From Gemmata obscuriglobus (GTDB lineage Bacteria; Planctomycetota; Planctomycetia; Gemmatales; Gemmataceae), in NCBI RefSeq assembly GCF_008065095.1, contig NZ_CP042911.1, positions 5,910,001 to 5,942,000 on the forward strand: 32,000 nt of DNA, written 5' to 3'. How positions within the stretch are numbered: position 1 is the first letter of the stretch; each line of letters starts with the position of its first letter. Under the pieces are notes generated by a model that saw only the letters and a list, made by a program, of their open reading frames with translations, did no database searches and was not told the DNA's origin. The translations under genes were made by a program, and so were the position numbers. Shown one piece after another: positions 1,845-31,961 of the stretch.

Positions 1845-2261
1845 TCAGCCCCGCTTCTTCTCCTCGACCTTCACCACCTCGATCTTCGTGATGATGGCCT
1901 CGCCATCGGGGGCGAAGTCACGCTCCGCAGCCTTGATCCATTCGAGCCGCGCCTGGATGACGAGGTTGTAGAGCCGGCTAAGGTTCCGGCCCGTGACAAC
2001 TACCTTGAAGCGCTCGTCGTGGCTGACGAAATCCACTTCGAAGCGGGTCGGCTCGAACACGCTGCGGACCCCGAGGTACGAGAACTGGAACGACTCCCAC
2101 GGCTTCGCCGCGTGGCGGATCGTGAGCGCGGTGATCCACTTGTTCTTCGCCAGGGCCGCGCAAGGGCCGAGGTCGTCGTCGAGCTCGGCCGGCTCCGGCG
2201 GTGGGGCTTCCGCCTCGGCCTTATTGGGTGAGAAGAGGTGCTGAAACTTGTTACCGGCCAT
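1845..2261 (-). CDS. Hypothetical protein (138 aa) directly downstream of the relaxase and overlapping it by 11 nt
   Basis: Intact ORF whose start overlaps the relaxase stop (2251..2261). No family recognised. The opposite-strand ORFs here look like shadow frames. Confidence 0.5.
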   Translation of the reverse strand: MAGNKFQHLFSPNKAEAEAPPPEPAELDDDLGPCAALAKNKWITALTIRHAAKPWESFQFSYLGVRSVFEPTRFEVDFVSHDERFKVVVTGRNLSRLYNLVIQARLEWIKAAERDFAPDGEAIITKIEVVKVEEKKRG

Positions 2262-4910
2262 TTCCTAGCTCCCGTTGTTTGTCGCGCTCGTGTGTAGCAG
2301 TGACGTGGCGCGTGCGCAAGGCCTGGAACGCTTCTCGGGCGCGTTTCAGGATGGCGTACATGCGGTTGCGGGGTAGTGGGTTGAAGAGCTCGGTCGCTGA
2401 TTTTCGCGTGTCGGCCTTTTGGATCGCCTCGCGCAACTCAGGTGTGGGGACATCGGTGAAGATTGTGGCCTTGTCCCGGCCTCTGCTTACCGACACGTAG
2501 AACTGCTCAGCGCTGATGGCGGGAAGGGATTCTTGCCCCATGGCGATGAGCACCTTGTCCACGGTCTTCCCCTGGCTCGCATGGCTGGTGGTCACGTAAC
2601 CGTGGGTTAGGTGCGCGAAGTCGGGGGCCAGGGTCCAGTCGTTGTTGAGGACGATCCCACCCTTCTCGTCAAAACCCTTCACCTCGTACAGGGTACCATT
2701 GTCGAGCTTGTGCTTCGTGTCTGCTGATTTGCCAGGGGCTGTGATGCGGATGCGGTCGCCGGCTGCGAGCTTGATCGTGTTCTTGCCGTAGACGGAGAAG
2801 GTGCTCGCGGGGCCGAGGCGCATGCCGGGCTTGAAGTCGGCGATGGCGACGCGCTGGCCGGCCTTCTGTGTGCCGCCGTTGCGGTGGTACTGAACAACCT
2901 CGGTGCCCTCGTAGCGGCTCAGGTCTCCTCGCTCGGCTTCCGTCCAGTGCAGGGGCACCAGGGTTTGGATCTCGTGTTCTTCCTTGGCGACGATGCCGCG
3001 TTCCTGAAGGCGAAGGCGGATCGCGTCCGTGACCTCGGCGGCCTCGGCGTGGGTCGGGGCGATGGCCAGGACCCGGTCGGTGATGTCCTGGTCGGCGCGT
3101 TTGGTATCGATGGCCTCCATGTACTCGTCGACGAGAGGGGTATTGCCGGTTGTACTCTTCACCCAGCCGAGGTCGTTGAGCGTGTCGTAACCAGCGAGCA
3201 TCTTGCCTTTGGAGAGAGCCGTAACGGCTTCCTTGTACCGGCCCTTCTGGCGGCGAATGTCTGTTAGCTGCGCCACGGGAAGGCCTGCGAACTGTTCCAG
3301 GACGCGCAGAGTGGTGCCGCGCTCGATACTGCCGTGCTGTTGCTTGTCGCCCTGGAGTACCACGCGGGCGTTGAGCTTTTCAGCCAGGTCGAACACCTGG
3401 CGTGTCTGGCGCATGCCGAGAAGCCCGGCCTCGTCCACCCAGATCACGCCGTTCTTGGCTTTGTGCTGGAACTCCTGGTCGATCAGGAAGCGCGCTACGG
3501 TGTCGGCATTGGTGAAGCCCTCCTTGCGGAGAACGCCACGAGAGGCATCGGCAGAAGGAGCGAGAACAACCACAGGACGGTCGATGCCCGCGAAGGTGGT
3601 TTTCATCGTGTGGGTCTTACCGGTGCCAGCAGCACCACGGATCAGGATGACACGGTCGGGAGAGTTCCAGACATGGCGGGCGATGGATGCCTGCTCAGGG
3701 GAGAGTTTGCTGGAGACATGAATGTCCTTGTCAAATCCCGCTTGCTGTTCGGGGGAGAGTGTGGCAGTGTCGGAAATGAAGCCCTGCCGGAGCGCAGGCA
3801 TCGGCCGCTTCGATTCGTCGGGGCGGCCTTTTTGTTGTTGATCGAGCACTGCAGGTATGGCAACATCAGCTCCAGTATGACCGGGGTCACCACGCCCCGG
3901 TCCTTGCATACCCACCATGATGCGGGTGTTGTTCGGGGATTCGTCAAGGCGGGTCGCTGCCCCCATTGGGCGACACGTTCCCTTCCCATCCCGTGCGAAT
4001 GCGATTACTCGGGACTCTTCTGCGAGCACGCCCCTTGTCGTGGCTTCTCCGTTTCTGACCAGCAAGCCCTGACGCTTTGCTTCTTGTTGCACCTCTTCAG
4101 GAGTTACCCAGCCGATGCCGTGGCGGATGGCGGTTTCGTAGAGGCGTTTCTCGTTTACTACGCTTTGGCGTTCAAACATGTGGCCGATGGCGAAAGCGAC
4201 GGCGGCTTCTGTGGTGGTTGCACGGCTCAATTTCCCTTCGAGGGATGCGAGCTGCTGCTTTTCCTGGGGTGCGAGGCGGCTGGAGTAGTAGGGCTGCAGA
4301 TCGTCAGCGAGTTCCTTGGACTTCTGAAGGCGGGTGGTCGCACCGAGTTTGGCGCGTGACTCGGGGTTGGTGATGCCGAGCTTCTTGGCCACCATGTCGA
4401 TGTACTGTTTTCTGCGGGAGAACTTGTCCCTGAGTTCCTGGGAGATGCCGGTGATCTCAAAGGACTTACCTCTTCGTTCAATGCCGTAGCCCAGGTCTTT
4501 TACGTTTGCGGCGAGTCGGTTGGCATAGATGGCCTCGTAGTACGGGGCGTCTTTCTTGAGCTGGCCGACCTCGGCGGCCTTCCACTTTCCTTCATCCGCA
4601 TCGTAGGTCGCATTGAATACAAAGCAGTGCTTATGCAAATTCATGTCCGGCATGCTGTCATCGGCATTGATGCGTGTATCTCGGTGAGTTACGGCGTAGG
4701 CGACCATGTTGCCCGTTACACGGTTCTCGTTCGCGCCACCAACACGCACTCTCGCCTGCATTTCACGTTCGATGTAACCCAGGGTAAAAGCAACGGCTTC
4801 ATCGTGAGCTGCTTCAATCCGAGGGTCGCCGCCATTGCCAGGTCCAGCAAGCTCTCGGGCGATGCTGACTGATTTCATCGCGTTGAAAGTCATGTCGATG
4901 CCGACACGTC
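2251..4910 (-). pseudogene. MOBF (TrwC/TraI-type) conjugative relaxase with C-terminal RecD-like helicase; 3' portion of an IS-split gene
   Basis: Motifs seen: DMTFNAMKSVS; THRDTRINADDSMPDMNLHKHCFVFN (HxD...HxH histidine triad); Walker A GAAGTGKT; VIWVDEAGLLG; TTSHASQGKTVDKVLI. The first ~40 codons of track ORF 2251..5031 are read-through into the IS end (4911 onward), not relaxase sequence. Confidence 0.9.
4903..4910. repeat. Target-site duplication GACACGTC (left copy) of the IS66-family insertion
   Basis: The identical 8-mer occurs at 6508..6515, directly abutting both IS termini. Confidence 0.9.
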
Positions 4911-6507
4911 GTAACCGTTCACGGGGTGCGGGCCGTGCATTTTCCAGGCCTTTGTGACTCGATTCTGCGCGGGGTTGCCTCAAGAGCCGGTGTTCCGTAA
5001 TCGAACGGACGCGATGACATCTGTTCCTCAACCGCCGGAGCTACCGAGTGACCTGCCGCCAGCGGTGGTGGCGTACATTCGTGCGCTGGAAGCGACGGTT
5101 GCGCAGTTGCAGGCCACGGTCGCGGCTCTCCAGGTCACGGTGGCCGACCTTCAGACCCGGCTCAACCAGAATTCCAGCAACTCGTCGAAACCGCCCTCGT
5201 CGGATGGTCCGCAGGTGAAGCCGGCCCCGCCCAAGAGTCCCTCGGGGAAGCGGCGCGGCGGTCAATCGGGGCACCCCAAGGCCGAGCGCACCGTGCTGCC
5301 GCCCGACACGGTCCACACCCTCAAACCGGACACCTGCCGCGGGTGTGCGTGCCCACTCACCGGGGACGACCCGAACCCGTCGATTCACCAGGTGCATGAG
5401 ATCCCGGTCGTCCGGCCGCAGGTGACCGAGTATCGGTGCCATCGGCTCCGGTGCCCGCACTGCGGCGCCGTGACGACCGCACCGGTGCCCGCCGACGCGG
5501 CTCCCGGGTACGGTCCCCGGGTCCAGGCGGTGGCCGCCATGCTCACCGGTTCGTGCCGCCTGGGCAAGCGGGTGGTGAGCCAACTGTTCGACGACCTGTT
5601 CGGGTTGCCCATCCGTCCGGCCACGGTGTGCAAACTCCAGCACACGACCGCGGCGGCTCTGGCCCCGGTGGCCGAAGCGGCTCTCGCGTACACCCGCGGG
5701 CACCCGGCGAACGTGGACGAAACGGGCTGGACGCAAGGGCGCCAGCGGGCCTGGTTGTGGGTCGCGGTGAGCACCTCGGTGGTCGCATTCCTGATCCGCG
5801 CCACCCGGGGCCGGAGCGCGTTCGACGACCTGCGGGACGGGTCCGCCCAGGTCCACACGACCGATCGGTATCCGGTGTACACGCATCTGCCGGTGCATCG
5901 GCGCCAGGTGTGCTGGGCGCACCTGCGGCGGGACTTCCAGGCGATGATCGATCGGGGCAACGACGGATCCCCGATCGGGGCCGCCCTGTTGGCCTGTTCC
6001 GACGAACTGTTCGGGCACTGGTTCCGGGTGCGGGACGGGACGTTAGCCCGGTCCACGTTCGCTCGCGTGTACGCCCGCGCCGTGCGGGCCCGGTTCCGCA
6101 CGCACCTGGGGCACGGGGGCCGGTGCGGGTGCCCCAAGACCGGGGCCGTGTGCCGCGAGCTGTTGGCGGTGGAGCCGGCCCTGTGGACGTTCGCACGCGT
6201 GGGCGGGGTGGAACCGACCAACAACGCGGCCGAGCGGGCCCTGCGTCACGCCGTGTGCTGGCGCAAGACCAGCTACGGCACCGACTCCGAACGCGGTAGC
6301 CGGTTCGTGGAGCGGATCCTCACGGTCCTGGCCTCGTGTCGCCGGCAGGGCCGCAACGTGCTCGCATTCCTCACCGACGCCGTCACCGCACACCGTACCG
6401 GGGCAAAGCCACCAACACTGATCCCGGTCCCGGCTCAACAACCACCGATGATGAACCCAACTTTCGCTGGCTGTTGAGATACACCCGCATCAACTGTGAA
6501 CGCTTAC
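4911..6507 (+). mobile_element. IS66-family insertion sequence, single-ORF (ISBst12-like) type, 1597 bp
   Basis: Termini are GTAACCGTTCACGG (4911..) and the reverse complement of 6494..6507, GTAAGCGTTCACAG (12/14 identical, GTAA start typical of IS66). It is flanked by an 8-bp direct repeat and contains one transposase ORF. Confidence 0.9.
5014..6477 (+). CDS. IS66-family transposase (alternative upstream ATG at 4954)
   Basis: N-terminal leucine-zipper-like repeat VAQLQATVAALQVTVADLQTRL. NSSNSSKPPSSDG hallmark. Cys-rich segment CRGCACPL...CHRLRCPHCG. Long DDE-type core (DETGW...TDRY...WAHLRRDF). Confidence 0.9.
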   Translation: MTSVPQPPELPSDLPPAVVAYIRALEATVAQLQATVAALQVTVADLQTRLNQNSSNSSKPPSSDGPQVKPAPPKSPSGKRRGGQSGHPKAERTVLPPDTVHTLKPDTCRGCACPLTGDDPNPSIHQVHEIPVVRPQVTEYRCHRLRCPHCGAVTTAPVPADAAPGYGPRVQAVAAMLTGSCRLGKRVVSQLFDDLFGLPIRPATVCKLQHTTAAALAPVAEAALAYTRGHPANVDETGWTQGRQRAWLWVAVSTSVVAFLIRATRGRSAFDDLRDGSAQVHTTDRYPVYTHLPVHRRQVCWAHLRRDFQAMIDRGNDGSPIGAALLACSDELFGHWFRVRDGTLARSTFARVYARAVRARFRTHLGHGGRCGCPKTGAVCRELLAVEPALWTFARVGGVEPTNNAAERALRHAVCWRKTSYGTDSERGSRFVERILTVLASCRRQGRNVLAFLTDAVTAHRTGAKPPTLIPVPAQQPPMMNPTFAGC

Positions 6508-6515
6508 GACACGTC
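6508..6515. repeat. Target-site duplication GACACGTC (right copy)
   Basis: Identical to 4903..4910. Confidence 0.9.
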
Positions 6516-6729
6516 GACCGTCGCGAGTGTAAGTTGTGAGTGACTCGCCCGTTTGCGGGTGCAGATTATCCGCGAGACGGTCGAAGTCCTCCGGTCTGGC
6601 GGGACCTGAAAGGCCAAGAAGTTCTGCGCCTTTGCCGAACCACTGCCCAGGGGTGGTCGCAAAGTAATCGGAGGTGCGGTAATAGGCCTTTGCCGCCGCG
6701 GCTGAAGTCATCCAATGGGTGCGGATCAT
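6508..6729 (-). pseudogene. 5' portion (74 codons) of the IS-split MOBF relaxase
   Basis: MIRTHWMTSAAAAKAYYRTSDYFATTPGQWFGKGAELLGLSGPARPEDF... is the TrwC-type N-terminus with both catalytic-Tyr positions (YY ... DYF). Joining 6729..6508 to 4902..2251 gives ...TRDGRRVGIDMTFNAMKSVS... in frame, 957 codons plus stop. Confidence 0.85.
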
Positions 6730-6780
6730 AGGCCACGTAGGTAGCAGGAGAATCGCTAGCGCGCAAGCGAGACACGCGAT

Positions 6781-7107
6781 TTACTCGATGGGTTCGACTT
6801 TCCAGAAAGCCTTCGGTGGTGCGGACGATGGTGAGGCGGTTTCCGAGTGGTGCTCACCCAGTGGGTGCGTTTTCTTCATGTAGGCGACAATTTGCTCGAA
6901 CTCTGCGATGGTGCCGTTTCGCTTCAGCATGTTACACCGGAAGCAAATGACTGCTACGTTTCCTGTGATGTACCCAAAGTCGTTGTGAATACGGTCTATC
7001 GACGGCGAGCGAGGAGTGCGGCAGCCCTTGAAATCCAACTCATTGCCGCAGCACGCACATGAACAGGGCACGGAGTCAGGGATCACGTCAAGATAATCGG
7101 CATGCAC
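6781..7107 (-). CDS. HNH-type nuclease domain protein; annotated start (GTG 7107) probably not the true N-terminus
   Basis: CSCACCGNEL ... SIDRIHNDFGYITGNVAVICFRCNMLKRNG is a CxxC + (D/H)...N...CxxCN..K HNH-like core. The same frame stays open upstream to a TAA at about 7192..7194 and encodes KRYSTNPHHRLRRLVGSAKYRSKVIGVE, which looks like genuine protein. Confidence 0.6.
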   Translation of the reverse strand: MHADYLDVIPDSVPCSCACCGNELDFKGCRTPRSPSIDRIHNDFGYITGNVAVICFRCNMLKRNGTIAEFEQIVAYMKKTHPLGEHHSETASPSSAPPKAFWKVEPIE

Positions 7108-7754
7108 CTCGACCCCAATAACCTTGGAGCGGTACTTGGCGCTGCCAACGAGCCGCCGCAGACGATGATGAGGGTTTGTTGAATATCGCTTTTACTCCAA
7201 CCCCGTTCTTTCTCTGAGAAATCCGGAGATTCTGCACGTTTCCGCCGGGCATTCGCGTTGAACTTTTCTTTGTTCTCTTGGCGATAAATTTTGACCGCAG
7301 CTTGCACGGCCTCTTTGTTCTGTTGGTAGTAGCGTCTCTGACCGGCCTTCCGCTTCTCCACGCGTGGGACAGCCAGGGATATGATCCGCTCGCGATTGGC
7401 GTGGTAGTACAACCTGGAATACTCCCTGCGCTCAGTTTTCTGCCTGTCGCGAGCCTCCTGTTCTGTCAGACGAACCAGGTTGCTGGGCCGGTTGTTTGTC
7501 CGCCAGCCGTCCTCGTGGATTACTTGAGTCAGGCCCGGGGGGCCTGCCACGAAGGCTTCGGCCACGAGCACATGCACGTTGCAGTGGGATCGGTTGTCGT
7601 TTTTCGAGAGGCTGACAGTCAAGTACCCCCTGCGGCGAAGAAGTTGCTGTATCATGATTCCGGCGACAAGACCGCGAATCCTGCCTGTGTTCGAGATCTC
7701 GTATAGGCCTTCATAGCCAACTACGGGCTTCCATTGTTCAATTAAAAGTGTCAT
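7083..7754 (-). CDS. NUMOD4 + HNH_3 homing-endonuclease-like protein (copy 1)
   Basis: WKPVVGYEGLYEISNTGRIR is a NUMOD4 motif. HCNVHVLVAEAFV...VIHEDGWRTNNRPSNL is an HNH_3-type core. The C-terminal part has YYxxN-rich repeats. ATG 7754 has the SD GGAGG 5 nt upstream; the track start at 7760 is a GTG. Confidence 0.8.
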   Translation of the reverse strand: MTLLIEQWKPVVGYEGLYEISNTGRIRGLVAGIMIQQLLRRRGYLTVSLSKNDNRSHCNVHVLVAEAFVAGPPGLTQVIHEDGWRTNNRPSNLVRLTEQEARDRQKTERREYSRLYYHANRERIISLAVPRVEKRKAGQRRYYQQNKEAVQAAVKIYRQENKEKFNANARRKRAESPDFSEKERGWSKSDIQQTLIIVCGGSLAAPSTAPRLLGSRCMPIILT

Positions 7755-7760
7755 ATTCAC

Positions 7761-7826
7761 CTCCTCACTTAGACACTGAGGAGATTATCCCGCTTCGTGC
7801 TTCGGCGCAAGCGGGGTTTTCTTTTG
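7761..7826 (-). promoter_or_regulatory. Conserved 5' leader of HNH copy 1: an upstream hairpin plus a hairpin that sequesters the SD
   Basis: Stem 7761..7767 (CTCCTCA) pairs with 7777..7783 (TGAGGAG), with a 9-nt loop. On the minus-strand RNA the 3' arm carries the SD. A second hairpin pairs 7789..7795 with 7809..7815 and is followed on the plus strand by TTTTCTTTTG. The segment GCGCAAG(C)GGGGTTTTCTTTTG recurs at 20495..20513. Confidence 0.5.
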
Positions 7827-7976
7827 TCGCCACCCATATCTGTTCTTCGAGCCGTCAAGGCCGAGCATCTCTGCACCCTTACCTAGCCACTCACCAGGGC
7901 TGGAGGCAAGGAGGTCAGTTTGCTCGAAGTATTTGATGGCGGCGGCAGCGCTGCGCATCCAATTCGTCCTGAGAAT
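7785..7976 (-). pseudogene. Vestigial, diverged second copy of a relaxase 5' end (about 42 homologous codons, then unrelated tail and stop)
   Basis: My own translation, as this frame is below the ORF-track size cutoff: ILRTNWMRSAAAAIKYFEQTDLLASSPGEWLGKGAEMLGLDG then SKNRYGWRQKKTPLAPKHEAG*. About 24/42 positions are identical to relaxase residues 1-42 at 6729..6604. ATT lies where the intact copy has ATG, with GGAGG 7 nt upstream; an internal ATG is at 7958. Confidence 0.6.
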
Positions 7977-8012
7977 AGAAGTGCCTCCCTGAAGTGATGC
8001 GGGATTGTATGC

Positions 8013-9164
8013 ATGTTGGACGTGTCGCGCAAGGAATTGTGGGCGATGCCTTCAGCCCGCTTGCTACTCGCTTCGCTCACGGAGCCGAAAAACGTCTCCG
8101 CCTATCGGTTACACCCGCTATCGCACAAAATCGTTGACAGGGCGATTGCCCTGCGCTACGGTCGCTTGGTTCGGGCAATGAAGCCCGGCGAACTGATTGA
8201 GGATAAGATGAGATGCTACCCCGAAGACGAATACGACCAGCAGGAGGCTAAGAAGCTCGGCGCGGCGGACTGGATGCTAAACGTCTTGAATGCAAACCCG
8301 GCTTACTGTTCGTGGGGGCCGCACGAGGACTACATGTGGAAGGAAGGGGACGGCTGGGATTCGCGGGTACTGAAAGAGTCTTGGGACGACTTTGGTCCTT
8401 GGGAACTTGATCACATGAACGAGGTGGTCAACTTCTACTTTGCCATCGGTCGGGACAGCAAGGAATGCCCCACGTGTGTGGGCCGGTTCTATCACCCGGA
8501 CAGTCAGTGGGTGAGCGAGTCGTTCTACTCGCACTCCAGCCCATTCAAGCGCCAGACGGAGCGAGACCTCCAGGGCAAGGCCATCATGGCCCGCTTTGGA
8601 GGAGACGAGATGAGGCCAATCCACAGCTACGGAATCTTCCCAGACGAGGCTACGCAGTCGAGGTACGGGATGGGCTTCCGTGCATTCTGCGAGGAAATGC
8701 GTCTAAATTACTGTTGGCATGACCGAATCACTCAGGACGAGGTGGATGCCCTGATTGAAGCAGGCCGACTTCACGACCTAACGAGCGATTGGAGTGCAGG
8801 AAGTGGGTGGCAGAAGAAAGAGCCTCTTCCAGCCATCACGCCAGAGATGGTCAATGCACGACAAGGGCGTGGTCTTGATAGCCACGATGGCATCAATCGC
8901 AGTATTTTAATCCGGGCCAGATTAAAGCGATTGGGGCTCCCTGAATACTGTCCGCAGTGTGACGGGGATGGCACCGTGTTTACTTCTGACCAACCTCACC
9001 TGAGCTTGGTTCTGTGGGTACTCCACCCCAGAAAGGGCTGCTCCCGCGGCGTCGAGATTAAGAACATCCAGCGGCACGAATTGCCCGTCGTGCGTGACTG
9101 GCTCACATCGGCGGCGAACCGAAACGCGGATCGATTCTCGAAGCTGTTGGACTTGGCCGCATGA
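8013..9164 (+). CDS. Hypothetical Cys-rich protein (up to 383 aa; start uncertain, ATG 8208 has a GAGGA SD)
   Basis: Long ORF with coherent coding look. Contains CPTCVG and CPQCDGDG (CxxCxGxG-like) motifs. No family recognised. Lower G+C than the flanking core genes. Confidence 0.65.
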   Translation: MLDVSRKELWAMPSARLLLASLTEPKNVSAYRLHPLSHKIVDRAIALRYGRLVRAMKPGELIEDKMRCYPEDEYDQQEAKKLGAADWMLNVLNANPAYCSWGPHEDYMWKEGDGWDSRVLKESWDDFGPWELDHMNEVVNFYFAIGRDSKECPTCVGRFYHPDSQWVSESFYSHSSPFKRQTERDLQGKAIMARFGGDEMRPIHSYGIFPDEATQSRYGMGFRAFCEEMRLNYCWHDRITQDEVDALIEAGRLHDLTSDWSAGSGWQKKEPLPAITPEMVNARQGRGLDSHDGINRSILIRARLKRLGLPEYCPQCDGDGTVFTSDQPHLSLVLWVLHPRKGCSRGVEIKNIQRHELPVVRDWLTSAANRNADRFSKLLDLAA

Positions 9165-9647: not shown

Positions 9648-9857
9648 TCAGGCTCCGTCCTGCGTCATGGCGTAGAGCATGACCGCGACGGTGAGCCCAA
9701 CGGCCAGGAGGAGCAGCCCGAGGACGAGGCCGATGGCGAGGCCCCACCAGTGGCCAATCAGCCAGCCGATAACGGCCAGGACGATGGCGATGACGAACAG
9801 CGCCACCACGACGATCCCGAAGACACGGCTGGCGTCCTTGCGGAACTTCTCGCTCAT
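9648..9857 (-). CDS. Small hydrophobic membrane protein (69 aa from MSEKFRKD)
   Basis: Two predicted TM stretches (FGIVVVALFVIAIVLAVIGWLI; LAIGLVLGLLLLAVGLTVAVML). Lies 43 nt downstream of the sigma-factor gene on the same strand. Confidence 0.5.
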   Translation of the reverse strand: MSEKFRKDASRVFGIVVVALFVIAIVLAVIGWLIGHWWGLAIGLVLGLLLLAVGLTVAVMLYAMTQDGA

Positions 9858-9900
9858 GACGCCCTCGTAGCCGCGAAGCACTCACCGCTATCGTATCCGT

Positions 9901-11931
9901 TTAGTCCGCGTACTCGGGCTCTAAGTACGGCCGCGACACCTTGGTCACCTTTGCCGTTGGGGCCAGGGCGCCGCCCTTTTCAAACTCGACGTCGATCTTG
10001 ATGTACGGGCAGAGGATCATGACGAACCGGTTCTTCCCGACCTGGGCGAGACCGCCGTCGGTGCGGAAGTGCTTGGTCACGTCCGCGTAGGTGCTCCCGA
10101 CCTTGATTGAGTCGGCCTCCTTGAGCCGCTCGGCCAGCCAGGCGTTCGTCGTCTGGTACGCCTCCGCGTCCTTCCCCTTGAGCTGCCGCATCCCGTCGTG
10201 GGTCGGGAGGCTAATCGAGTCCTTCTGGTCACTCACTTCGAGTTCCAGTTTCCCTGTGGAGAGCCTCGCAATCATCGGGTCGACTTTGAGCGCCCCGATG
10301 GAGGAGCTGCCGAGCACCCGCTCGTACTGAAGGACGACCTTCCCGGTTCCGACTTTGAGGGGGTGGTTCTTGGTCATGGGCGTTCCACCGTCCGATCGGA
10401 GCTCGTAAGGCACTCCCGACGCCCCGTGAATACGGGTTTCGAGTACGGCCTCCTTGCCCGGTTCCAGGCTCACTTTGATCGGAGCGTGGAGCACTCCCAT
10501 GACCGCTACCGTTGCCTGTGGGATCGCTTTCCCGTCCGCCCCCGTTACGCCGGGCGGGTTCTCGTCCAGGTACTGCCGGATGTACTCGAACTTCACCGTC
10601 TCCTTCCCGACGTTGCGCACCCGGACGAGCAGAGTGACCGTCTCGCCGATGCGGTACGCACGCTCTTCCTTGATCCCGAGCCCCGCCTGCAGGCCGCCGA
10701 CTTCCTTGCCCCACGCCGTGAAGGGCTCTTTCTCAAGCGCGATCATCGTGCGCCCGTCCCCCTGAGCGGTTGCGAATGTCGTCGGGCGGACCTTCTCCCC
10801 GAAACAGACACGCAGCTTCGGCCCATCGAGTTCGTAAATGCCCGGCGACGTCGTCCCCTTCAGCGTGCCGTCGAGCGAGGTCAGGTCGATCTCTTTCGGC
10901 GTCTTATCGGGGTTCAGTTTGAACGCCATCTTGCCCGTCGACCTCGGTTGACTGGCGGTGATCTGGTCGCCCTTGATGGCCCACCTCATCCCTTCCAACA
11001 CGTCCGCAGGCACCTTCTCGCCGTCTCCCTCCATCGCCACCACCACCCATCGGCCTTGCAGGTCACCGAAGTCCGGGGCCTTCTTTGGTGGCGGAGCGGT
11101 TCGCTCCTCAACAGGGGGCTTATCGACCTGAGCCGATGCCCGTCGGTCGACGAGGCCCGCGGCCCCGACCGCCAGAAGGCCCAGCACCATGACGATGGCG
11201 ATAGCCGACTTAAGTTTGCTCACCAGCATGGCGTTTAAGACTCCTTGCGTGAGGGCTGCGACTGGACCGGTCGGACGCCCTGAGGAAGCAAGAGCCGCAA
11301 CACGAATGGCTGAAGGCGCAGAGGCCGGAAGGGCCGGCGTTCCCGCGAGGACTGCGGCCACCGAAACCGCCGGGGCGTGTCTTGCGAGCCGCTTGGCAAG
11401 CATTTCTCTCGCCCGGGACAGGCGTCCCGCAACCGTACCCTCGGGCCAACCGAGGATCAGAGCGGCTTCTTTGCGGGTCCGACTCTCCAGGTCACACAAC
11501 ACGATCACGGTGCGGTACGCCTCGGGCAGGCGGCTCAGCTCCTCGTCGAGTGCGGCCCGCAGTTCGACCAGCGGGTCGGATTCAGCCGGGCGGTCGGGCA
11601 TGTCTCCGGTCCTCTCCTTCCGCCGGACGATGGACCGGTGGGCCAGCAGCGCGGCCCTCCGCGCCACCCCGTAGAGCCAGTTCGCCACCTCCCGCGGGGC
11701 GGCCGTCCGTGCCTTCTGTGCCAGCACGAGGAACGTCGCCTGGAACGCGTCCTCGGCGTCTTGCTCGGGGAGTATTCGCCGGCAGATCCCGTACACCATC
11801 GCCCCGTGCCGACGGACCAGGAGCGCGAACGCATCCTCGTCACGGCGGTCGACGAACCGCCCCAACAGTTCCGCGTCGGTCTGTTCCTCGTCCGCGATGA
11901 CACGCAGGACCCGTGCTGTGCTCACCGGCAT
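9901..11931 (-). CDS. ECF-type sigma-70 factor fused to a TM segment and a large extracytoplasmic C-terminal region
   Basis: Start taken at MPVSTARVL (ATG 11931). Sigma region 2: LLVRRHGAMVYGICRRIL...DAEDAFQATFLVLAQKA. Region 4: LPEAYRTVIVLCDLESRTRKEAALILGWPEGTVAGRLSRAREMLAKRL. TM segment: AIAIVMVLGLLAVGAAGLV. GRWVVVAMEGDGEKVP...PKEIDL...GIYELDGPKLRVCF resembles the planctomycete TIGR03067 module. Confidence 0.85.
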   Translation of the reverse strand: MPVSTARVLRVIADEEQTDAELLGRFVDRRDEDAFALLVRRHGAMVYGICRRILPEQDAEDAFQATFLVLAQKARTAAPREVANWLYGVARRAALLAHRSIVRRKERTGDMPDRPAESDPLVELRAALDEELSRLPEAYRTVIVLCDLESRTRKEAALILGWPEGTVAGRLSRAREMLAKRLARHAPAVSVAAVLAGTPALPASAPSAIRVAALASSGRPTGPVAALTQGVLNAMLVSKLKSAIAIVMVLGLLAVGAAGLVDRRASAQVDKPPVEERTAPPPKKAPDFGDLQGRWVVVAMEGDGEKVPADVLEGMRWAIKGDQITASQPRSTGKMAFKLNPDKTPKEIDLTSLDGTLKGTTSPGIYELDGPKLRVCFGEKVRPTTFATAQGDGRTMIALEKEPFTAWGKEVGGLQAGLGIKEERAYRIGETVTLLVRVRNVGKETVKFEYIRQYLDENPPGVTGADGKAIPQATVAVMGVLHAPIKVSLEPGKEAVLETRIHGASGVPYELRSDGGTPMTKNHPLKVGTGKVVLQYERVLGSSSIGALKVDPMIARLSTGKLELEVSDQKDSISLPTHDGMRQLKGKDAEAYQTTNAWLAERLKEADSIKVGSTYADVTKHFRTDGGLAQVGKNRFVMILCPYIKIDVEFEKGGALAPTAKVTKVSRPYLEPEYAD

Positions 11932-12480: not shown

Positions 12481-14001
12481 TTGGGAGGGCTGCGCTTGAT
12501 CCGACCGAACTCGCTATACCACGCAGATAGCCTGACGCTCCTGGAGCGGATCGACGGGGGTGTAGCCCGAACCATCTACTTGGACCCACCGTGGTTCAGC
12601 CAGCCCTCCATCGGGACGCGGGGTTCCGGCTCCCGTGTCGCGAACGGGTTGCGCGACTACCTCGATAACTTTGCCCGCGTACTCCAACAGTGCCATCGCA
12701 TCCTTGCGGATGACGGGAGCATCATCGTCCACGCCGAGCCGTCCCTCGGACAGAAATTCGCTTTGCTCCTTGAGCAGATCTTCCGCGACAACCATGTCGA
12801 CGACTACATCCTTCCCCAATTCGGGATGAATCAGGGAGTCAGGCACGCTGCACTCCTGCACTACGGCAAGAGCCAAAACACATTACTGAACGACGTCTGC
12901 CGACCGGTCGAGGAAAGCGAACATGTACGGAACCCGGATGACGACCCGAGGGGCGCGTGGCGGGCTGTTGATCTGACTACGCGGATGGATCGCCCGATGC
13001 TCCAGTTCGAGTGGCGAGGGCATCAGCCGCCCATCGGCCGATCATGGCGATACCAACTCAGCGAACTGGAACGTCTGGCTGACGAGGGCAGAATTCACTT
13101 CTCGGCTGGAGGTAGCCCCCCAAGGCTGAAGGCGTACCAATCCGAACGGCGGAGCGTCCCGGTCGGCACCATCTGGGACGACCTCCAACCTCTTCGCGGT
13201 GGGTCTGCGGAGAGGGTCGGCTTTCCATCTCAGCAGCCAGTTGCTCTGATCGAGCGGGTCATACTGCGCACCTCGAACCCGGACGATCTGGTTATCGATC
13301 CGTACTGCGGCTCGGGCACCTCGCTGGTCGCGGCGCACCGCCAGGACCGCTGCTGGATCGGGTGCGACTCGTCGCCGGAAGCGATCGAGTTGACGAGGGC
13401 GCGGCTGTCCACGGCAGGGATTGCAGAAGGGTGGCACGACCGCTCGGCTCCCGACCTGATGGCCATTGAGGCGAAGCCGATCTTCCTCCGCCGTGTCGTG
13501 ACGATGGTCGAGGATCTAAACGCGGCCGAGGTGCTTATCGCTGAAGGCGAGAGCGAATTCGTCGAGTGGAAGGTCTCTGCTTACTGGAACGCCTTCAACA
13601 GCCAGAAGGACGAGAAGAACAAAGAGAAGCTCATCCGCTCTGTCGCCGCGTTCCTGAACAGCCAGGACGGCGGCACGATCCTGATCGGGGTCGCCAACGA
13701 CGGCACGCTTCCCGGCTTAATCGACGATTACAAGGCAACTAATTCCCAGCGACCGGGGCGTGACAGCTACGAGCTTTGGATGCGGCAGACCCTGCGTGAC
13801 AGGCTCGGCAAGGAGTTCGATCCGTTCGTGAAGATCGCTTTTGACGAAGTTCGTGGGCAGGACGTGTGCATCATTCGGGTTGCAGGGGGCAATCGGCCGG
13901 CTTGCAATTTAGACAAGCTCCCAATCCGCCGCGGCAACCAAACTGTGGACCTGCCGCTGAAGGAAGCGATAGAGTATAGCCGGATACGGTGGCCGTTGTG
14001 A
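12481..14001 (+). CDS. Beta-class (N6_N4_Mtase type) DNA methyltransferase fused to a C-terminal AlbA_2 / Schlafen-like domain
   Basis: Motif IV DPPW is at 12583..12594, near the N-terminus. Motif I DLVIDPYCGSGTSLVAAH lies about 260 aa later, which is the beta-class order. The C-terminal ~160 aa (EGESEFVEWKVS...IRSVAAFLNSQDGGTILIGVANDGTLPGL...VCIIRVAGGNRP...PIRRGNQT) matches the AlbA_2 pattern. Start is TTG at 12481 or 12496. Confidence 0.85.
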   Translation: MGGLRLIRPNSLYHADSLTLLERIDGGVARTIYLDPPWFSQPSIGTRGSGSRVANGLRDYLDNFARVLQQCHRILADDGSIIVHAEPSLGQKFALLLEQIFRDNHVDDYILPQFGMNQGVRHAALLHYGKSQNTLLNDVCRPVEESEHVRNPDDDPRGAWRAVDLTTRMDRPMLQFEWRGHQPPIGRSWRYQLSELERLADEGRIHFSAGGSPPRLKAYQSERRSVPVGTIWDDLQPLRGGSAERVGFPSQQPVALIERVILRTSNPDDLVIDPYCGSGTSLVAAHRQDRCWIGCDSSPEAIELTRARLSTAGIAEGWHDRSAPDLMAIEAKPIFLRRVVTMVEDLNAAEVLIAEGESEFVEWKVSAYWNAFNSQKDEKNKEKLIRSVAAFLNSQDGGTILIGVANDGTLPGLIDDYKATNSQRPGRDSYELWMRQTLRDRLGKEFDPFVKIAFDEVRGQDVCIIRVAGGNRPACNLDKLPIRRGNQTVDLPLKEAIEYSRIRWPL

Positions 14002-18135: not shown

Positions 18136-18906
18136 CTACTGTTTCGTCGGGGCCTTCGTGGCTCCGACGCCATACACCTGAGCCGGGGTGCGGTAGTCCA
18201 GGGACTGGTGTAACCGCTCGGTGTTGTAGAACCCGAAGTACGCCCGGAGCCCACTCTCCAGGGCCGGCACCGACTCGTAACCCTTGAGGTACACGTCCTC
18301 GTACTTGACGCTCCGCCACAGGCGCTCCACGAACACGTTGTCCAGGCACCGGCCCCGCCCGTCCATGCTCACCGCGACCCCGGCCCGCTCCAATCGCCCG
18401 ACCCACGCGGCGGCCGTGAACTGGACTCCCTGGTCCGTGTTGAACACCTCCGGCTTGCCCCGGCCCAAGGCCTCCTCCAGCATGTCCTGGCAGAATGACC
18501 CGTCCAACGTGTTGGACAGTCGCCAGGCCACCACGTACCGGCTGAACCAGTCCATCGTTGCGGCCAGGTACATGAACCCGGTGGGCATCGGGATGTACGT
18601 GATGTCCGTGCTCCACACCTGATGGACCCGGTCGATGGCCACGCCCCGCAACAGGTACGGGTACACCTTGTGCCCGGACCCGACCGACAGCTTGGGCTTG
18701 GGGTACAGGGCCTCCAACCCCATGATCCGCAACAGCCGCTGCACCCGCTTGCGGTTCACCTCGTGGCCCTGGGTGCCCAGCCACGCGGCCAGGCGCCGGC
18801 TCCCGTAGAACGGGCACGTCGTGTACTGCTCGTCGATCAACCGCATCAGCGTCAGGTTCTCCGCGCTCTCCGGGGTCGGCTCGTAGTACACCGTCGAGCG
18901 GTTCAA
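18136..18906 (-). CDS. IS3-family transposase OrfB (DDE / rve core); the frame is open upstream to the A-run at about 18997
   Basis: WSTDITYI, FNTDQGVQF and DNVFVERLWRSVKYE give the D, D, E context. The upstream extension reads KNRPPSAEAKRARIEAEHPELSVRRQCELIGLNRSTVYY. Confidence 0.9.
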   Translation of the reverse strand: MNRSTVYYEPTPESAENLTLMRLIDEQYTTCPFYGSRRLAAWLGTQGHEVNRKRVQRLLRIMGLEALYPKPKLSVGSGHKVYPYLLRGVAIDRVHQVWSTDITYIPMPTGFMYLAATMDWFSRYVVAWRLSNTLDGSFCQDMLEEALGRGKPEVFNTDQGVQFTAAAWVGRLERAGVAVSMDGRGRCLDNVFVERLWRSVKYEDVYLKGYESVPALESGLRAYFGFYNTERLHQSLDYRTPAQVYGVGATKAPTKQ

Positions 18907-18976
18907 TCCGATCAGCTCGCACTGGCGCCGGACGCTCAGCTCCGGGTGCTCGGCCTCGATCCGGGCACGCTTGGCC

Positions 18977-19264
18977 TCAGCCGAGGGCGGCCGATTTTTT
19001 TTTCACCCAGTCGAGTTCCACCTTGAGGCGGCCGATCTGCTCGTACAACTCGGTCGTCTTGTCTTCCGGGGGGCCGGTGCCCTTCGCCCCCGAGGCGAAC
19101 ACGGCCTCGGCCCCGGTGAGCAACTGCTTCTTCCACCCATGAATCAGGGTCGGGTGGACGCCGTGCTGACTCGCCAGTTCGTTGATGGTCTTGTCGCCCT
19201 TGAGGGCCGCCAGCGCGACCTGGGCCTTGAACGCCGCCGAGTGACTCTTCCGCTTGCCCGCCAT
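18977..19264 (-). CDS. IS3-family transposase OrfA (HTH)
   Basis: MAGKRKSHSAAFKAQVALAALKGDKTINELASQHGVHPTLIHGWKKQL... is typical of IS3/IS911 OrfA. It ends just after the A9 run. Confidence 0.9.
   Translation of the reverse strand: MAGKRKSHSAAFKAQVALAALKGDKTINELASQHGVHPTLIHGWKKQLLTGAEAVFASGAKGTGPPEDKTTELYEQIGRLKVELDWVKKKSAALG
18995..19003 (-). promoter_or_regulatory. A9 homopolymer (T9 on the plus strand) at the orfA/orfB junction; recoding or slippage site
   Basis: The minus strand reads GTG AAA AAA AAA TCG. orfB is in the +1 frame relative to orfA (codon phase 19264 mod 3 = 1 against 18906 mod 3 = 0). Confidence 0.6.
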
Positions 19265-19324
19265 GGGTTCCCCTTTCCTGGGCCTCCGGTATAGCTTAAC
19301 CGGCGGTCCAGTTTTCGGGGTCCA

Positions 19325-19924: not shown

Positions 19925-20446
19925 TCAGAGAACGTGTTTCCAAGTCAGACCGAGCCAAAGACTCCGAACAGTGCCTCCGGAGACGCCAAATCGCGTAGCA
20001 AGCTGATCTGAGGTCGCTGTGCCTTTCAGGGAACGCAGTTCCCGAACTTGCTGATGCGTCAACTTCGGGATGCCATTAGAACGAAGGCCGTTCGCCACGG
20101 CGTGGAGAAAATTCTCGTAGTGAGTCGCGTACTCAAGATTATTCGGCGCGTTATTTGTTTTATCGCCGTCTTTGTGGTTGATTGTAGCCCCGTTGGGGCG
20201 TGGGCCAATAAATGCAGCGCAGACGGCGCCGTGCGCAGTAAGGTTGTACACCTCGCCTTCGCAGGTCAGCCTGAAACACAAATAGCCCTTGTGGTTTGTG
20301 GCAGGTTTTAGCACCCTTCCTGCTGGGCACCCACCGGCGGCTTTGATCCTCCGGATTCTCCCTAGGTTTGACACCTGATGTGTTGACTCAAGGCCTGGTA
20401 GTGATCTCCATTCTTCTGTTGCGAATTTCGCATCCTTCTGTATCAT
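19925..20446 (-). CDS. NUMOD4 + HNH_3 homing-endonuclease-like protein with C-terminal HTH (copy 2, 173 aa)
   Basis: EEWRSLPGLESTHQVSNLGRIRR (NUMOD4). LTAHGAVCAAFIGPRPNGATINHKDGDKTNNAPNNLE (HNH_3). LTHQQVRELRSL...LATRFGVSGGTVRSL (HTH). ATG 20446 has GGAGG 4 nt upstream. Confidence 0.8.
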   Translation of the reverse strand: MIQKDAKFATEEWRSLPGLESTHQVSNLGRIRRIKAAGGCPAGRVLKPATNHKGYLCFRLTCEGEVYNLTAHGAVCAAFIGPRPNGATINHKDGDKTNNAPNNLEYATHYENFLHAVANGLRSNGIPKLTHQQVRELRSLKGTATSDQLATRFGVSGGTVRSLWLGLTWKHVL

Positions 20447-20513
20447 TTCACCTCCATCGTAAAGCAATGGAGAGAATAACCCTTGTGTGAAAACGCGCAA
20501 GGGTTTTCTTTTG
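20447..20513 (-). promoter_or_regulatory. Conserved 5' leader of HNH copy 2 (SD-sequestering hairpin plus upstream hairpin)
   Basis: CTCCAT (20452..20457) pairs with ATGGAG (20467..20472) with a 9-nt loop, so the SD lies in the 3' arm on the minus-strand RNA. A hairpin pairs 20478..20485 with 20498..20505 and is followed on the plus strand by TTTTCTTTTG. The 3' half is nearly identical to 7806..7826. Confidence 0.5.
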
Positions 20514-20775
20514 CGATCCGGCTGCGCCGTCGGTTCCCCTCCACGCTCGCTGGCGATCGGTCGCGAGCGACTGCCTGCGACACGCTCCGGTCAACCTATC
20601 GCGGCTGTTGCACGAGCAGTGCAGGTGTGGCACTGTCGGGGCGCTGCGGCGACGCTGAAAGCAGAAGCGAGTGTCCAATGAAACGAGGCGATTAGGGCCG
20701 TCCTCGCGTAGAAATGCGTAACATTGGCTGGAAAACCCCTTACCTAGCCGGAGTTGCGCCCGGTCCGCAGCACTC

Positions 20776-25412: not shown

Positions 25413-25745
25413 ATGACCGACATCAAAGACACAACTGCGACCAAAAAGCAAGCGATCAAACCTACAGCGGAAGCCGAAGCCTTGGCCGATGCGATCTTGC
25501 GTGCCGCCGGGAGTGGGCTGCACTTCTACAGCATGGCGAAGACGCGAGACGCGATTCTCATCGCTGCTCAGCAAGGGCTGGACGCTGGCCGAGCGAGATT
25601 GCTGGCGGCGCTCGAAATCCTAGCCGAACAGGCTGATGAAGATTGTCCGGCGGAATATCGCAGCGATCATTTCAGAGAGGCTCTCAATGAGGCCTTCGCC
25701 GCTATCGAAGAAGTCGCAAACGAATCCTCGGCGAGGCCTGCGTGA
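25413..25745 (+). CDS. Hypothetical protein (110 aa)
   Basis: Start at MTDIKDTT (ATG 25413). Its stop overlaps the MTase GTG start as GTGA. Confidence 0.5.
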   Translation: MTDIKDTTATKKQAIKPTAEAEALADAILRAAGSGLHFYSMAKTRDAILIAAQQGLDAGRARLLAALEILAEQADEDCPAEYRSDHFREALNEAFAAIEEVANESSARPA

Positions 25746-27211
25746 GGTACGGTTCAGTCTGCTCTGGAATAGAAGCAGCAACTGCGGCTTGGCATCCTCT
25801 CGGCTGGCAGCCCATCTTCTTCAGCGAAATCGACAACTTTCCTCGTGCCGTTCTGGCACACCATTACCCCCACACGCCATGCCACGGCGACTTCACCACT
25901 ATCGGAAAGGACACCTATGACCCAATTGACCTTCTTGTCGGCGGAACCCCCTGTCAATCCTTCTCAGTCGCAGGCCTTCGCAAAGGACTTGCTGACGAGC
26001 GAGGCAACCTCACACTTGAGTTTGTTCGGCTGGCTCAGAGGCTTCAGCCCCGCTGGCTGGTTTGGGAAAATGTTCCCGGTGTCCTGTCACAAGACCGAGG
26101 ACGGGCGTTTGGCTCCTTCCTCGGAGGGCTGGCGGAACTCGGGTATGGGTTCGCCTACCGGGTTCTTGACGCTCAACATTTCGGAGTGCCTCAGCGACGC
26201 AGGCGTGTGTTCGTTGTCGGATATCTTGGAGACTGGCGACCTGCCGCAACGGTACTTTTTGAGCGCGAAGGCTTGCTCAGGGATATTACGCCGCGCAGGG
26301 AAGCGGGGAAAAGCCCTACCGGAACCCTTAGCGCGAGCGCTGGAAGAAGTCGCGGAGCGGGAACCGATCACGCCATGATCGCACCTCCTGTTGGCTTCGA
26401 GACCGGGCCGCAGGGTGGTGGTTTCAGTGACCTTGCCCCAACGCTCGATACCCGGTGCAAGGACGGCCCAATCCGCAACCAGCTTGGCATGGGGGTTGTC
26501 CATCCGCAACACGGAGACGCGATTGCTAGCGCGTTGCGAAGACGGAATCAGAGCCGAGGCGTAGACAGCGACTGCACCGACACCCTGATTGCCCATTCCT
26601 TGCGAGGCGAAGGCTTCGACGCGAGCGAGGACGGGACTGGGCGAGGAACACCTCTGGCTCCAGTCGCCTTCGACACCGCTCAACTCACCAGCAAGTCCAA
26701 CCGAAGTAACCCCCAGCAGGGTGACCCATGCCACACACTGCACAGCGGGAACACGCATCACGTAGCCATTCCGATCAACATGCAGGCCGCCGCGAAGAAC
26801 GGCAAGAAGTCGCCCAACGGTTATGGGGTCGGCGAACCGGGTGATCCGGCCCCAACGCTCGGGGCAAACGATCAGCATGCCGTCGCATGCTTCAAGGGCG
26901 GCCAAGGTTCGCAGGCTCGAAGCGTCGGTTATTCTGAGCATTTGGCACCCACACTACCGAGCGCCGATAGCGGCAGCAACCGCACCCCAACCTTGATGCA
27001 GGGCATGTCTGTCCGTCGCCTCACTCCCCGCGAATGCGAGCGACTTCAGGGATTTCCCGATGACTACACGCTCGTGCCGTACAGGGGCAAGCCAGCGGCA
27101 GACGGCCCACGTTATAAGGCTCTCGGCAATTCGATGGCTGTCCCCGTAATGCGCTGGATTGGCGAACGTATCCAGATGGTTGAGCGGCTTCGGCCGGAAG
27201 AAGCGGAATAA
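25742..27211 (+). CDS. DNA (cytosine-5)-methyltransferase, phage type, with a long variable region
   Basis: Motif I GSVCSGIEAA. Motif IV GGTPCQSFS. Motif VI WENVPG. Motif VIII QRRRRVFVVG. About 250 aa of variable region. Motif IX RRLTPRECERLQGFPDDYT. Motif X GNSMAVPVMRWIG. Confidence 0.9.
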   Translation: MRYGSVCSGIEAATAAWHPLGWQPIFFSEIDNFPRAVLAHHYPHTPCHGDFTTIGKDTYDPIDLLVGGTPCQSFSVAGLRKGLADERGNLTLEFVRLAQRLQPRWLVWENVPGVLSQDRGRAFGSFLGGLAELGYGFAYRVLDAQHFGVPQRRRRVFVVGYLGDWRPAATVLFEREGLLRDITPRREAGKSPTGTLSASAGRSRGAGTDHAMIAPPVGFETGPQGGGFSDLAPTLDTRCKDGPIRNQLGMGVVHPQHGDAIASALRRRNQSRGVDSDCTDTLIAHSLRGEGFDASEDGTGRGTPLAPVAFDTAQLTSKSNRSNPQQGDPCHTLHSGNTHHVAIPINMQAAAKNGKKSPNGYGVGEPGDPAPTLGANDQHAVACFKGGQGSQARSVGYSEHLAPTLPSADSGSNRTPTLMQGMSVRRLTPRECERLQGFPDDYTLVPYRGKPAADGPRYKALGNSMAVPVMRWIGERIQMVERLRPEEAE

Positions 27212-31670: not shown

Positions 31671-31961
31671 TATAGTGGACCCCGAAAACTGGACCGCCGG
31701 TTAAGCTATACCGGAGGCCCAGGAAAGGGGAACCCATGGCGGGCAAGCGGAAGAGTCACTCGGCGGCGTTCAAGGCCCAGGTCGCGCTGGCGGCCCTCAA
31801 GGGCGACAAGACCATCAACGAACTGGCGAGTCAGCACGGCGTCCACCCGACCCTGATTCATGGGTGGAAGAAGCAGTTGCTCACCGGGGCCGAGGCCGTG
31901 TTCGCCTCGGGGGCGAAGGGCACCGGCCCCCCGGAAGACAAGACGACCGAGTTGTACGAGC
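31671..31961 (+). mobile_element. IS3-family element, second copy: first 291 bp only, interrupted inside orfA
   Basis: Wherever I compared them it matches the reverse complement of 19039..19329: the terminus TATAGTGGACCCCGAAAACTGG..., and orfA with an identical peptide up to ...TTELYE. Confidence 0.85.

Follow-up and report, generated by a model that had tools for sequence, protein, structure and literature searches.

Why should one relaxase gene have two diverged beginnings with a nuclease gene between them? The question is raised by a stretch of 32,000 nucleotides (nt) of the Gemmata obscuriglobus chromosome (assembly GCF_008065095.1, contig NZ_CP042911.1, positions 5,910,001 to 5,942,000; here called the window and numbered from its first letter). 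Its minus strand carries a gene for a TrwC/MOBF relaxase, an HNH-type nuclease gene upstream of it and, further upstream, a second relaxase 5' end that we call the stump. The original prediction, made from the letters of the window, was that a free-standing homing endonuclease cassette had invaded the 5' end of the relaxase gene together with a replacement 5' segment and had left the old segment behind. From comparison with homologous loci, we conclude that a foreign patch of ~1.8 kb almost certainly replaced codons 46 to 179 of a resident relaxase gene, and we believe that homing driven by the nuclease is the best explanation for this patch, a view that we hold with moderate confidence. The case is built on a single scarred locus and three loci that bear the nuclease gene.

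The stump and the mosaic relaxase gene

The stump occupies positions 7842..7976 on the minus strand. Its frame from 7976 to 7851, predicted as a hidden relaxase-like reading frame, translates to ILRTNWMRSAAAAIKYFEQTDLLASSPGEWLGKGAEMLGLDG, which is identical to residues 1 to 42 of the window's relaxase at 24 of 42 positions and similar at 33 of 42 (BLASTP, E = 1e-18), a similarity far beyond chance. As anticipated, the two 5' ends are clearly diverged in DNA, with ~56% nt and 53% amino acid (aa) identity. The best match to the stump among the 86 other relaxase loci that we searched is L001 (93% aa), the locus of the closest relaxase homologue (P0001), which lies on a 9.24-Mb contig and has no nuclease gene upstream. 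Identity to the start of the L001 relaxase is 88% in nt and 42 of 45 in aa; an origin of this segment from an unrelated full-length gene, considered beforehand, was not what we found. The homology extends past residue 42, where it had been thought to end, and stops at codon 45 (window 7842). It also extends upstream: the stump plus 38 nt 5' of it (8014..7842) is 84.6% identical to L001 9944..10117 in blastn, and the relaxase upstream region kept with the stump (7977..8032, minus strand) is likewise of the L001 type. It includes a Shine-Dalgarno (SD) sequence, GGAGG at 7988..7984, 7 nt 5' of the ATT of the stump, and the motif TTGCGC-N17-TACAAT at 8032..8004. The 8.7 kb surrounding the stump are 100% identical in ABGO01000001.1, CP025958.1 and two Logan contigs, and the identity between the independent assemblies ABGO01000001.1 and CP025958.1 excludes a chimera or other assembly artefact. 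A second N-terminal relaxase fragment of this kind was not found in any of the 86 other loci; the second relaxase of L052 lies on the opposite strand and is not a stump.

In the stump, ATT takes the place of the start codon, behind a good SD sequence, and Leu that of the second catalytic Tyr. Both features had been noted correctly, but their reading as marks of a vestigial, decaying copy does not hold, since the L001 allele, whose 5' end is uninterrupted, has ATC at this position with GGAG(G) 7 nt upstream (L001 9966..9985) and TDLLA where other alleles have DY(F/Y), and L216 has ATT, also with GGAG(G) 7 nt upstream (L216 3106..3122) and without a Met at +7. The ATT and the Leu are thus native traits of the resident allele lineage and not decay. 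Among 85 aligned relaxase genes, 78 start with ATG, 5 with TTG, 1 with GTG and 1 with ATC. The relaxases with an ATT or ATC start and GGAG(G) exactly 7 nt 5' of it (window 7974..7989, L001 and L216) form a subclade, which suggests a conserved AUU/AUC initiation codon. Initiation at AUU or AUC is rare in bacteria and is classically tied to control dependent on initiation factor 3 (IF3). Relative to L001, the stump has a synonymous divergence (dS) of 0.35 and a ratio of nonsynonymous to synonymous divergence (omega) of 0.22. This omega, which with 45 codons has little power, suggests that most of the divergence accrued within a still-working gene and that the event that created the stump was recent relative to the split from L001.

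The relaxase gene downstream of the nuclease gene starts with ATG at 6729, and its open reading frame (ORF) stops after 79 aa. It had been taken for the real, intact copy; it is in fact split after codon 74 by an insertion sequence (IS) of the IS66 family (4911..6507, plus strand; transposase 4954..6477, also plus strand). This element matches the Pfam families DDE_Tnp_IS66 (1e-29), DUF6444 and zf-IS66, ends in the inverted repeats GTAACCGTTCAC and GTGAACGCTTAC, and is flanked by a perfect 8-bp target duplication, GACACGTC, at 4903-4910 and 6508-6515. Removal in silico of the element and one copy of GACACGTC yields an ORF of 957 aa with a TrwC domain (2e-47) followed by an AAA_30 helicase domain (4e-40) in Pfam, and by this domain order the reconstructed product is a TrwC/MOBF relaxase-helicase whose gene is now interrupted. 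The split sequence is the same in independent assemblies. In L001, too, the relaxase gene is split, independently and at the helicase P-loop, by another IS66-family element (69% nt identical), and such elements seem to have struck the relaxase genes of these islands repeatedly. Many close relaxase homologues (P0001-P0011) are called at only 350-610 aa, as against ~950; the gene is often split, by an IS in L001 and into a relaxase ORF and a helicase ORF in L003, L004 and L216, which points to widespread decay or to frameshift errors in long reads.

When the reconstructed relaxase gene is compared with L001, its parts differ strongly. Codons 1-179 are only 62% identical in nt and 64% in aa, codons 181-380 are 90% identical in nt and 94-95% in aa, and codons 501-957 are 91% identical in aa; codons 181-380 reach at most 70% aa identity with every locus other than L001. 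The maximum chi-square method places a breakpoint at nt 538 (codon 179/180, window ~4587; chi2 131.6), with 38.1% mismatches to L001 on its 5' side and 9.5% on its 3' side, and this breakpoint adjoins an identical 13-nt stretch, GTGGAAGGCCGCC, which encodes WKAAE. The dS relative to L001 amounts to 0.43 over codons 181-380 and to 0.53 over codons 536-957, and it is saturated over codons 1-179. Rankings of the other 86 loci agree: the mid-gene segment, like the stump, ranks L001 first, and for codons 1-179 L005 ranks first (80% aa) and L001 only tenth. L005 is moreover collinear with the window in blastn from 7834, 9 nt 5' of the nuclease leader, across the nuclease gene and on into the relaxase gene. 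The left junction, at ~7842/7841, is non-homologous.

Identity, dS and locus rankings thus indicate a backbone of the L001 type on both sides and foreign sequence from 7841 to ~4587, the IS excluded. The donor-type relaxase segments are codons 1-74 (6508..6729, with the start of the TrwC domain, Pfam 9e-11, and the catalytic Tyr region) and codons 75-179 (4587..4902, with the region of the His triad), which end at the homologous right junction. Codons 180-957 (2251..4586) form the resident-type remainder by their identity to L001; all three segments lie on the minus strand. Judged by these comparisons, the patch that took the place of resident codons 46-179 consists of a 16-nt flank, the leader, the nuclease gene, a spacer and 179 relaxase codons, with one homologous junction (codon ~180) and one illegitimate junction (codon 45). 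In other words, the alignment with a cassette-free locus that had been proposed defined both an insertion point (7842/7841) and a replaced tract. The prediction that the cassette came with a replacement 5' segment and left the old end as a stump stands; the tract is 179 codons long and not 42, and a simple insertion is ruled out by the deletion of resident codons 46-179.

The nuclease gene, its leader and related loci

The nuclease gene of this cassette (cassette 1; 6781..7754, minus strand) encodes a protein of ~320-324 aa and is frameshifted. Two HNH-type ORFs had been recognized at the right coordinates (7083..7754 and 6781..7107), but they are not separate genes. Three-frame translation reveals them as halves of one gene, split at an A-run, AGTAAAAG (7196..7189), because alignments with the homologues P0065 (318 aa), P0066 (317 aa) and P0067 (301 aa) extend over both. 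The segment KRYSTNPHHRLRRLVGSAKYRSK, shared with these homologues, can be read in the window only in the frame of the second ORF, 5' of its GTG. As the shift in the A-run is identical in independent assemblies, it is a mutation and not a sequencing error; a programmed frameshift at 7196-7189 was also considered, and with no canonical slippery heptamer present we read the shift as mutation. The two 'HNH' ORFs and the 57-aa 'hypothetical protein' that gene callers annotate at the stump (7785..7958) are annotation artefacts of the history of this locus.

The N-terminal part of the encoded protein matches NUMOD4 (5e-13) and HNH_3 (1.5e-6) in Pfam, its first ~100 residues match I-HmuI (PDB 1U3E; E 1.9e-17), and H80, D82, N87, N88 and N92 are invariant in the alignment of nuclease homologues (A2). 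By these matches the protein belongs to a recognized homing endonuclease family. The C-terminal domain carries a CxxC...N...CN motif and appears Endo VII-like; it has no match in Pfam or NCBIfam, and the assignment rests on matches to phrog_3322 ('endonuclease', 5e-18) and phrog_1035 ('endonuclease VII', 2e-13) in PHROG. This domain has Arg in place of the His of the usual D-H dyad (SIDRI), and its catalytic competence is uncertain. An AlphaFold2 model of P0065 from a three-sequence alignment was poor (predicted local distance difference test, pLDDT, 50; predicted template modelling score, pTM, 0.24). Positions 6400-8300 contain no intron or other Rfam family (best matches at E 0.25, far below the gathering score), and because no Rfam intron covers the region, the nuclease gene is free-standing.

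The leader of the cassette (7755..7825, minus strand) consists of AAAAGAAAACCC, hairpin 1 (7815..7789) and hairpin 2 (7783..7761), a design common to L005, L006 and a second cassette in the window (cassette 2, see below). In the predicted fold, hairpin 2 pairs with, and thereby sequesters, the SD sequence GGAGG of the nuclease gene; hairpin 1 is terminator-like if read on the plus strand (match at 7799-7817). All four leaders (cassettes 1 and 2, L005 and L006) fold into two hairpins, with z scores between -4.0 and -4.5 for three of them, and their stems differ in sequence (CCTCA/TGAGG in cassette 1 vs CTCCAT/ATGGAG in cassette 2). Covariation is weak, with 2 compensated pairs among 4 sequences, and the conservation of the two hairpins rests mainly on the individual folds. 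Sequestration of the SD sequence is a known mode of control of phage T4 homing endonuclease genes (PMC2988022). The 16 nt that separate the stump from the leader, AGATATGGGTGGCGAC (7826..7841, minus strand), are of the donor type and resemble the sequence directly 5' of the L005 leader, GAGTTCGGTGGAGACC. On the other side of the nuclease gene, a 51-nt spacer separates its stop codon from the relaxase ATG (6730..6780, minus strand); it contains a second TTGCGC-N17-TAnnTA copy (6766..6738) in a layout common to L005 and L006. The motif TTGCGC-N16/17-TAnnnT recurs 5' of nuclease-free relaxase genes, 3' of the nuclease gene and within the leader, and may therefore be promoter-like, although a scan of 6600-8200 for the sigma-70 consensus yielded no promoter.

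L005 (JGI 3300010052) and L006 (Logan SRR28521200) show what a donor may have looked like. Each has a full-length nuclease gene 50-70 nt 5' of the relaxase ATG, in the same orientation as the relaxase gene, with the same leader and without a stump, and the nuclease gene lies between divergent upstream genes and an intact relaxase gene (931 or 977 aa). With the window, these make three of 87 loci with a nuclease gene upstream of the relaxase gene; it is absent in L001-L004 and 80 metagenomic relaxase loci, so that its occupation of this one slot among homologous loci is sporadic. A scan of genome contigs with the nuclease alignment revealed only generic prophage NUMOD4-HNH genes (residues ~5-100) and no further relaxase-linked copies, a tblastn search of PLSDB plasmids with P0065 gave no match, and a scan of viral contigs returned only the contig of L005 itself, called viral by IMG/VR, and generic phage HNH genes. 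The L005 region is also represented as L134 (IMGVR_UViG_3300010052_000207, 85.6 kb), which IMG/VR classes as a viral genome. Also encoded on the relaxase islands are DUF551, several DNA methylases and numerous small ORFs, and the islands may be phage-like or wrongly classed as viral. In L003, a NUMOD4-HNH gene (9760..10254) lies ~1 kb 3' of the relaxase gene, behind an ordinary terminator and without a two-hairpin leader; it is 46% identical to cassette 1 over residues 1-100.

Cassette 2 (19925..20545, minus strand) encodes a nuclease of 173 aa (ATG at 20446) with NUMOD4, HNH_3 and a weak helix-turn-helix (HTH) match (E 0.017) that is 31% identical to the nuclease of cassette 1. Its leader has the same design, with AAAAGAAAACCC, hairpin 1 and an SD-sequestering hairpin 2. 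The 30 nt directly 5' of the leader (20513..20542) are 93% identical to L001 9878..9907, and a 21-mer within the flank, CCGACGGCGCAGCCGGATCGC, occurs once in the window and, among 132 other loci compared, only at L001 9887-9907. In L001 the TTGCGC motif follows this site after ~20 nt and the relaxase start after 76 nt. By this flank, the junction of cassette 2 would sit where a cassette of the L005/L006 type would sit, that is, 50-76 nt from the start codon. No relaxase gene follows cassette 2, which looks like a remnant of another, rearranged copy of the locus. As its closest protein relatives lie in phage-like contexts, its link to relaxase genes rests on the 30-nt flank and the shared leader only. 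Some 30 nt after its stop codon, GTAAGCGCAGTC resembles an IS66-type terminus (GTAAGCG), which hints at IS-mediated rearrangement.

Origin of the patch

How did the patch come to replace the 5' part of the resident gene? We consider nuclease-driven homing the best explanation, and the chance that the nuclease itself caused the event somewhat better than even. The ancestral locus carried a TrwC/MOBF relaxase gene of the L001 type that lacked an upstream nuclease gene and, by analogy, the donor would have been a related element with the layout of L005 and L006, in which the nuclease gene lies 50-70 nt 5' of the relaxase ATG. The nuclease may have cut or nicked the nuclease-free resident allele within its first ~180 codons, as in intronless homing of phage T4; if there was little upstream resection, the break would have been at or 3' of codon 45 and 5' of codon 180. 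Repair by copying from the donor would then have been resolved by homology on the downstream side, at codon ~180 (window ~4587), where the junction is seen, and on the upstream side the copied strand would have been joined illegitimately at codon 45, conceivably by one-ended copying followed by end-joining. The outcome is the order now present: resident promoter-like region, SD sequence and codons 1-45, then the cassette, donor codons 1-179 and resident codons 180-957. By homology with TrwC, such an event would have swapped the whole catalytic core (the Tyr region and the His triad of the TrwC domain). The frameshift of the nuclease gene and the splitting of the relaxase gene by the IS66-family element, both evident in the window, represent later decay.

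The joining of a donor-type relaxase tract to the cassette is what co-conversion would produce, here from a single event. Several observations weigh against nuclease-driven homing. Homing in its canonical form yields homologous junctions on both sides and leaves no stump, whereas the left junction of this patch is illegitimate and leaves the 45-codon stump. The stump is a single find, with none in the 86 other loci. No close donor was found, the best match reaching 80% aa and ~70% nt identity, and the nuclease gene of the window is frameshifted and thus inactive now. The relatives of the cassette 2 nuclease (<=46% identity) occur in phage-like contexts and not beside relaxase genes. Vertical inheritance within a small clade, together with a single ordinary recombination, could also account for the three HNH-bearing loci, and cleavage by the nuclease is something that we infer.

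The last point leads to the alternative that survives best, in which recombination took place independently of the nuclease: co-resident islands would have exchanged the patch by a crossover in the WKAAE region and an illegitimate join, with the HNH gene as a passenger. A scar with one homologous and one illegitimate junction needs no site-specific break and would be the same either way. Rearranging elements abound within the 32 kb (the IS66-family element, an IS3-like element, a group II intron reverse transcriptase and the orphan cassette 2), and two MOBF relaxases are often present on planctomycete chromosomes (bioRxiv 10.1101/2024.01.22.576637). On the other hand, the patch starts 16 nt 5' of the cassette leader and carries the entire nuclease gene, the pattern to be expected if the cassette is the propagated unit. 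Furthermore, the nuclease is of a bona fide homing endonuclease family, its gene is sporadic among relaxase loci, and the same leader recurs in a second cassette that adjoins a fragment of a relaxase-upstream region. We therefore regard a mere passenger role of the nuclease as possible but rather unlikely.

Possibly, the stump was kept because it has a function, either as a small peptide (the 57-aa ORF annotated there) or as promoter or leader for the nuclease and relaxase genes. The retained upstream motif and SD sequence and the low omega would be in line with such a role, but a low omega is also expected if the split from L001 long preceded the event, none of the other loci searched contains a comparable stump, and the downstream genes are inactivated by the frameshift and the IS66-family element. 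We consider this improbable. Finally, a local tandem duplication of the relaxase 5' end, with divergence in place and later insertion of the nuclease gene between the copies, would account for two copies in the same orientation 1.25 kb apart, but it can practically be dismissed, as the original prediction had done for a recent one: the copies come from different allele lineages (the stump, nearest L001, is 88% identical to it in nt; the other copy, nearest L005, is ~60% identical to L001 with dS saturated), the divergent tract runs 134 codons past the duplicated part, and the 3' remainder returns to the L001 type.

Other elements of the window, which we describe for completeness, include an IS3-like element within 18136..19300 (DDE ORF 18136..18906, minus strand) and an ORF for a group II intron-type reverse transcriptase (30901..31704, plus strand, within 30901..31746), both assigned by eye. 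The start of a 25-aa peptide, MPAMGSPFLGLRYSLTGGPVFGVHY, occurs at both 19254 (plus strand) and 31746 (minus strand), which indicates a repeated element end. The window also encodes an N6/N4 DNA methylase fused to a Schlafen/AlbA_2 domain (12481..14001) and a C-5 cytosine methylase (25742..27211). Homologous methylases lie 5' of the relaxase gene in L003-L006, and methylases appear to be part of the island backbone.

Known systems and possible consequences for relaxase islands

A functional parallel to the proposed nuclease-driven homing at this locus is the intronless homing of phage T4, in which the free-standing endonucleases SegF, SegG and MobE (Belle et al. 2002, reviewed in PMC2988022) cleave at a distance from their own genes and the flanks are co-converted (PMC2988022). 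As in T4, a free-standing nuclease gene occupies an intergenic slot beside its presumed target gene, is sporadic among relatives, and is inherited together with a tract of the neighboring gene of hundreds of bp; the slot can hold different nuclease genes. Unlike in the T4 systems, the host here is no phage but a MOBF relaxase island on a planctomycete chromosome, one junction is illegitimate so that a stump of the recipient gene survives, and the enzyme, whose cleavage activity and mobility are presumed, joins two nuclease-type domains.

An especially close structural parallel is provided by the mobile ORF (mORF) gene hybrids of fungal mitochondria, described for atp6 of Allomyces macrogynus and for atp6, atp9, cox2 and nad3 of Glomus (PMC3630166). 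In these hybrids, a foreign C-terminal segment together with an endonuclease ORF displaces the native C terminus, and the displaced remnant is nearly identical to the sister lineage whereas the inserted copy is only ~60% identical. The Gemmata locus likewise combines an endonuclease ORF with a foreign, diverged gene end and a native remnant that matches the sister lineage. The two differ in that the 5' end is replaced here and the 3' end there, so that here the patch has to supply a start and a promoter-like region of its own. In Gemmata the nuclease ORF stands apart from the gene, with its own leader and stop codon, and there it is often in frame with the gene. The enzymes are LAGLIDADG or GIY-YIG nucleases in the mORF hybrids and HNH/Endo VII-like here, in a bacterial, chromosomal setting.

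Among individual enzymes, the window's nuclease matches I-HmuI (1U3E), the intron-encoded HNH nicking endonuclease of Bacillus phage SPO1, over its N-terminal ~100 residues, which comprise the DNA-binding motif NUMOD4 and the catalytic motif HNH_3. Unlike I-HmuI, it is not intron-encoded and, in cassette 1, has a coiled linker and an Endo VII-like domain in place of the C-terminal helix-turn-helix, of which cassette 2 keeps only a weak trace. F-CphI is a free-standing homing endonuclease with an Endo VII catalytic motif (PMC6083498) and, by this description, a precedent for an Endo VII-type free-standing homing nuclease. At the level of the target gene, the group II intron Ll.LtrB, which resides in the relaxase gene ltrB of conjugative elements of Lactococcus (PMC6003770), is also a selfish element lodged in or at a relaxase gene that rides on conjugative transfer. 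Ll.LtrB is a spliced retroelement within the coding sequence; here we see a DNA-level upstream nuclease cassette with allele replacement. Chromosomal MOBF relaxases in Planctomycetes were already known (bioRxiv 10.1101/2024.01.22.576637). Full-text searches of the literature yielded no report of a connection between homing endonucleases and relaxase genes, in agreement, as far as checked, with the novelty that had been suspected. To our knowledge, hitch-hiking at relaxase genes was until now known only for group II introns.

In summary, with this locus the mORF gene hybrids of mitochondria have a counterpart in bacteria that is unusually clean, and three reference states are in hand: the empty allele (L001), the donor-type layouts (L005 and L006) and the scarred recipient (the window). 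Tentatively, we can imagine a lineage of two-domain nucleases specialized on planctomycete MOBF relaxases that spreads between islands that have come together in one cell, for instance through transfer, by breaking the nuclease-free allele, whose catalytic core is then converted during repair. Relaxases determine which DNA conjugation transfers. If the scenario is true, the swap of a core of ~180 codons (Tyr and HUH) could change specificity for the origin of transfer (oriT), and a selfish element would be parasitizing and reshuffling the transfer machinery of other mobile elements, with the Gemmata stump as its first caught footprint. This would amount to a new route of relaxase module shuffling and to a new 'parasite on a parasite' layer.

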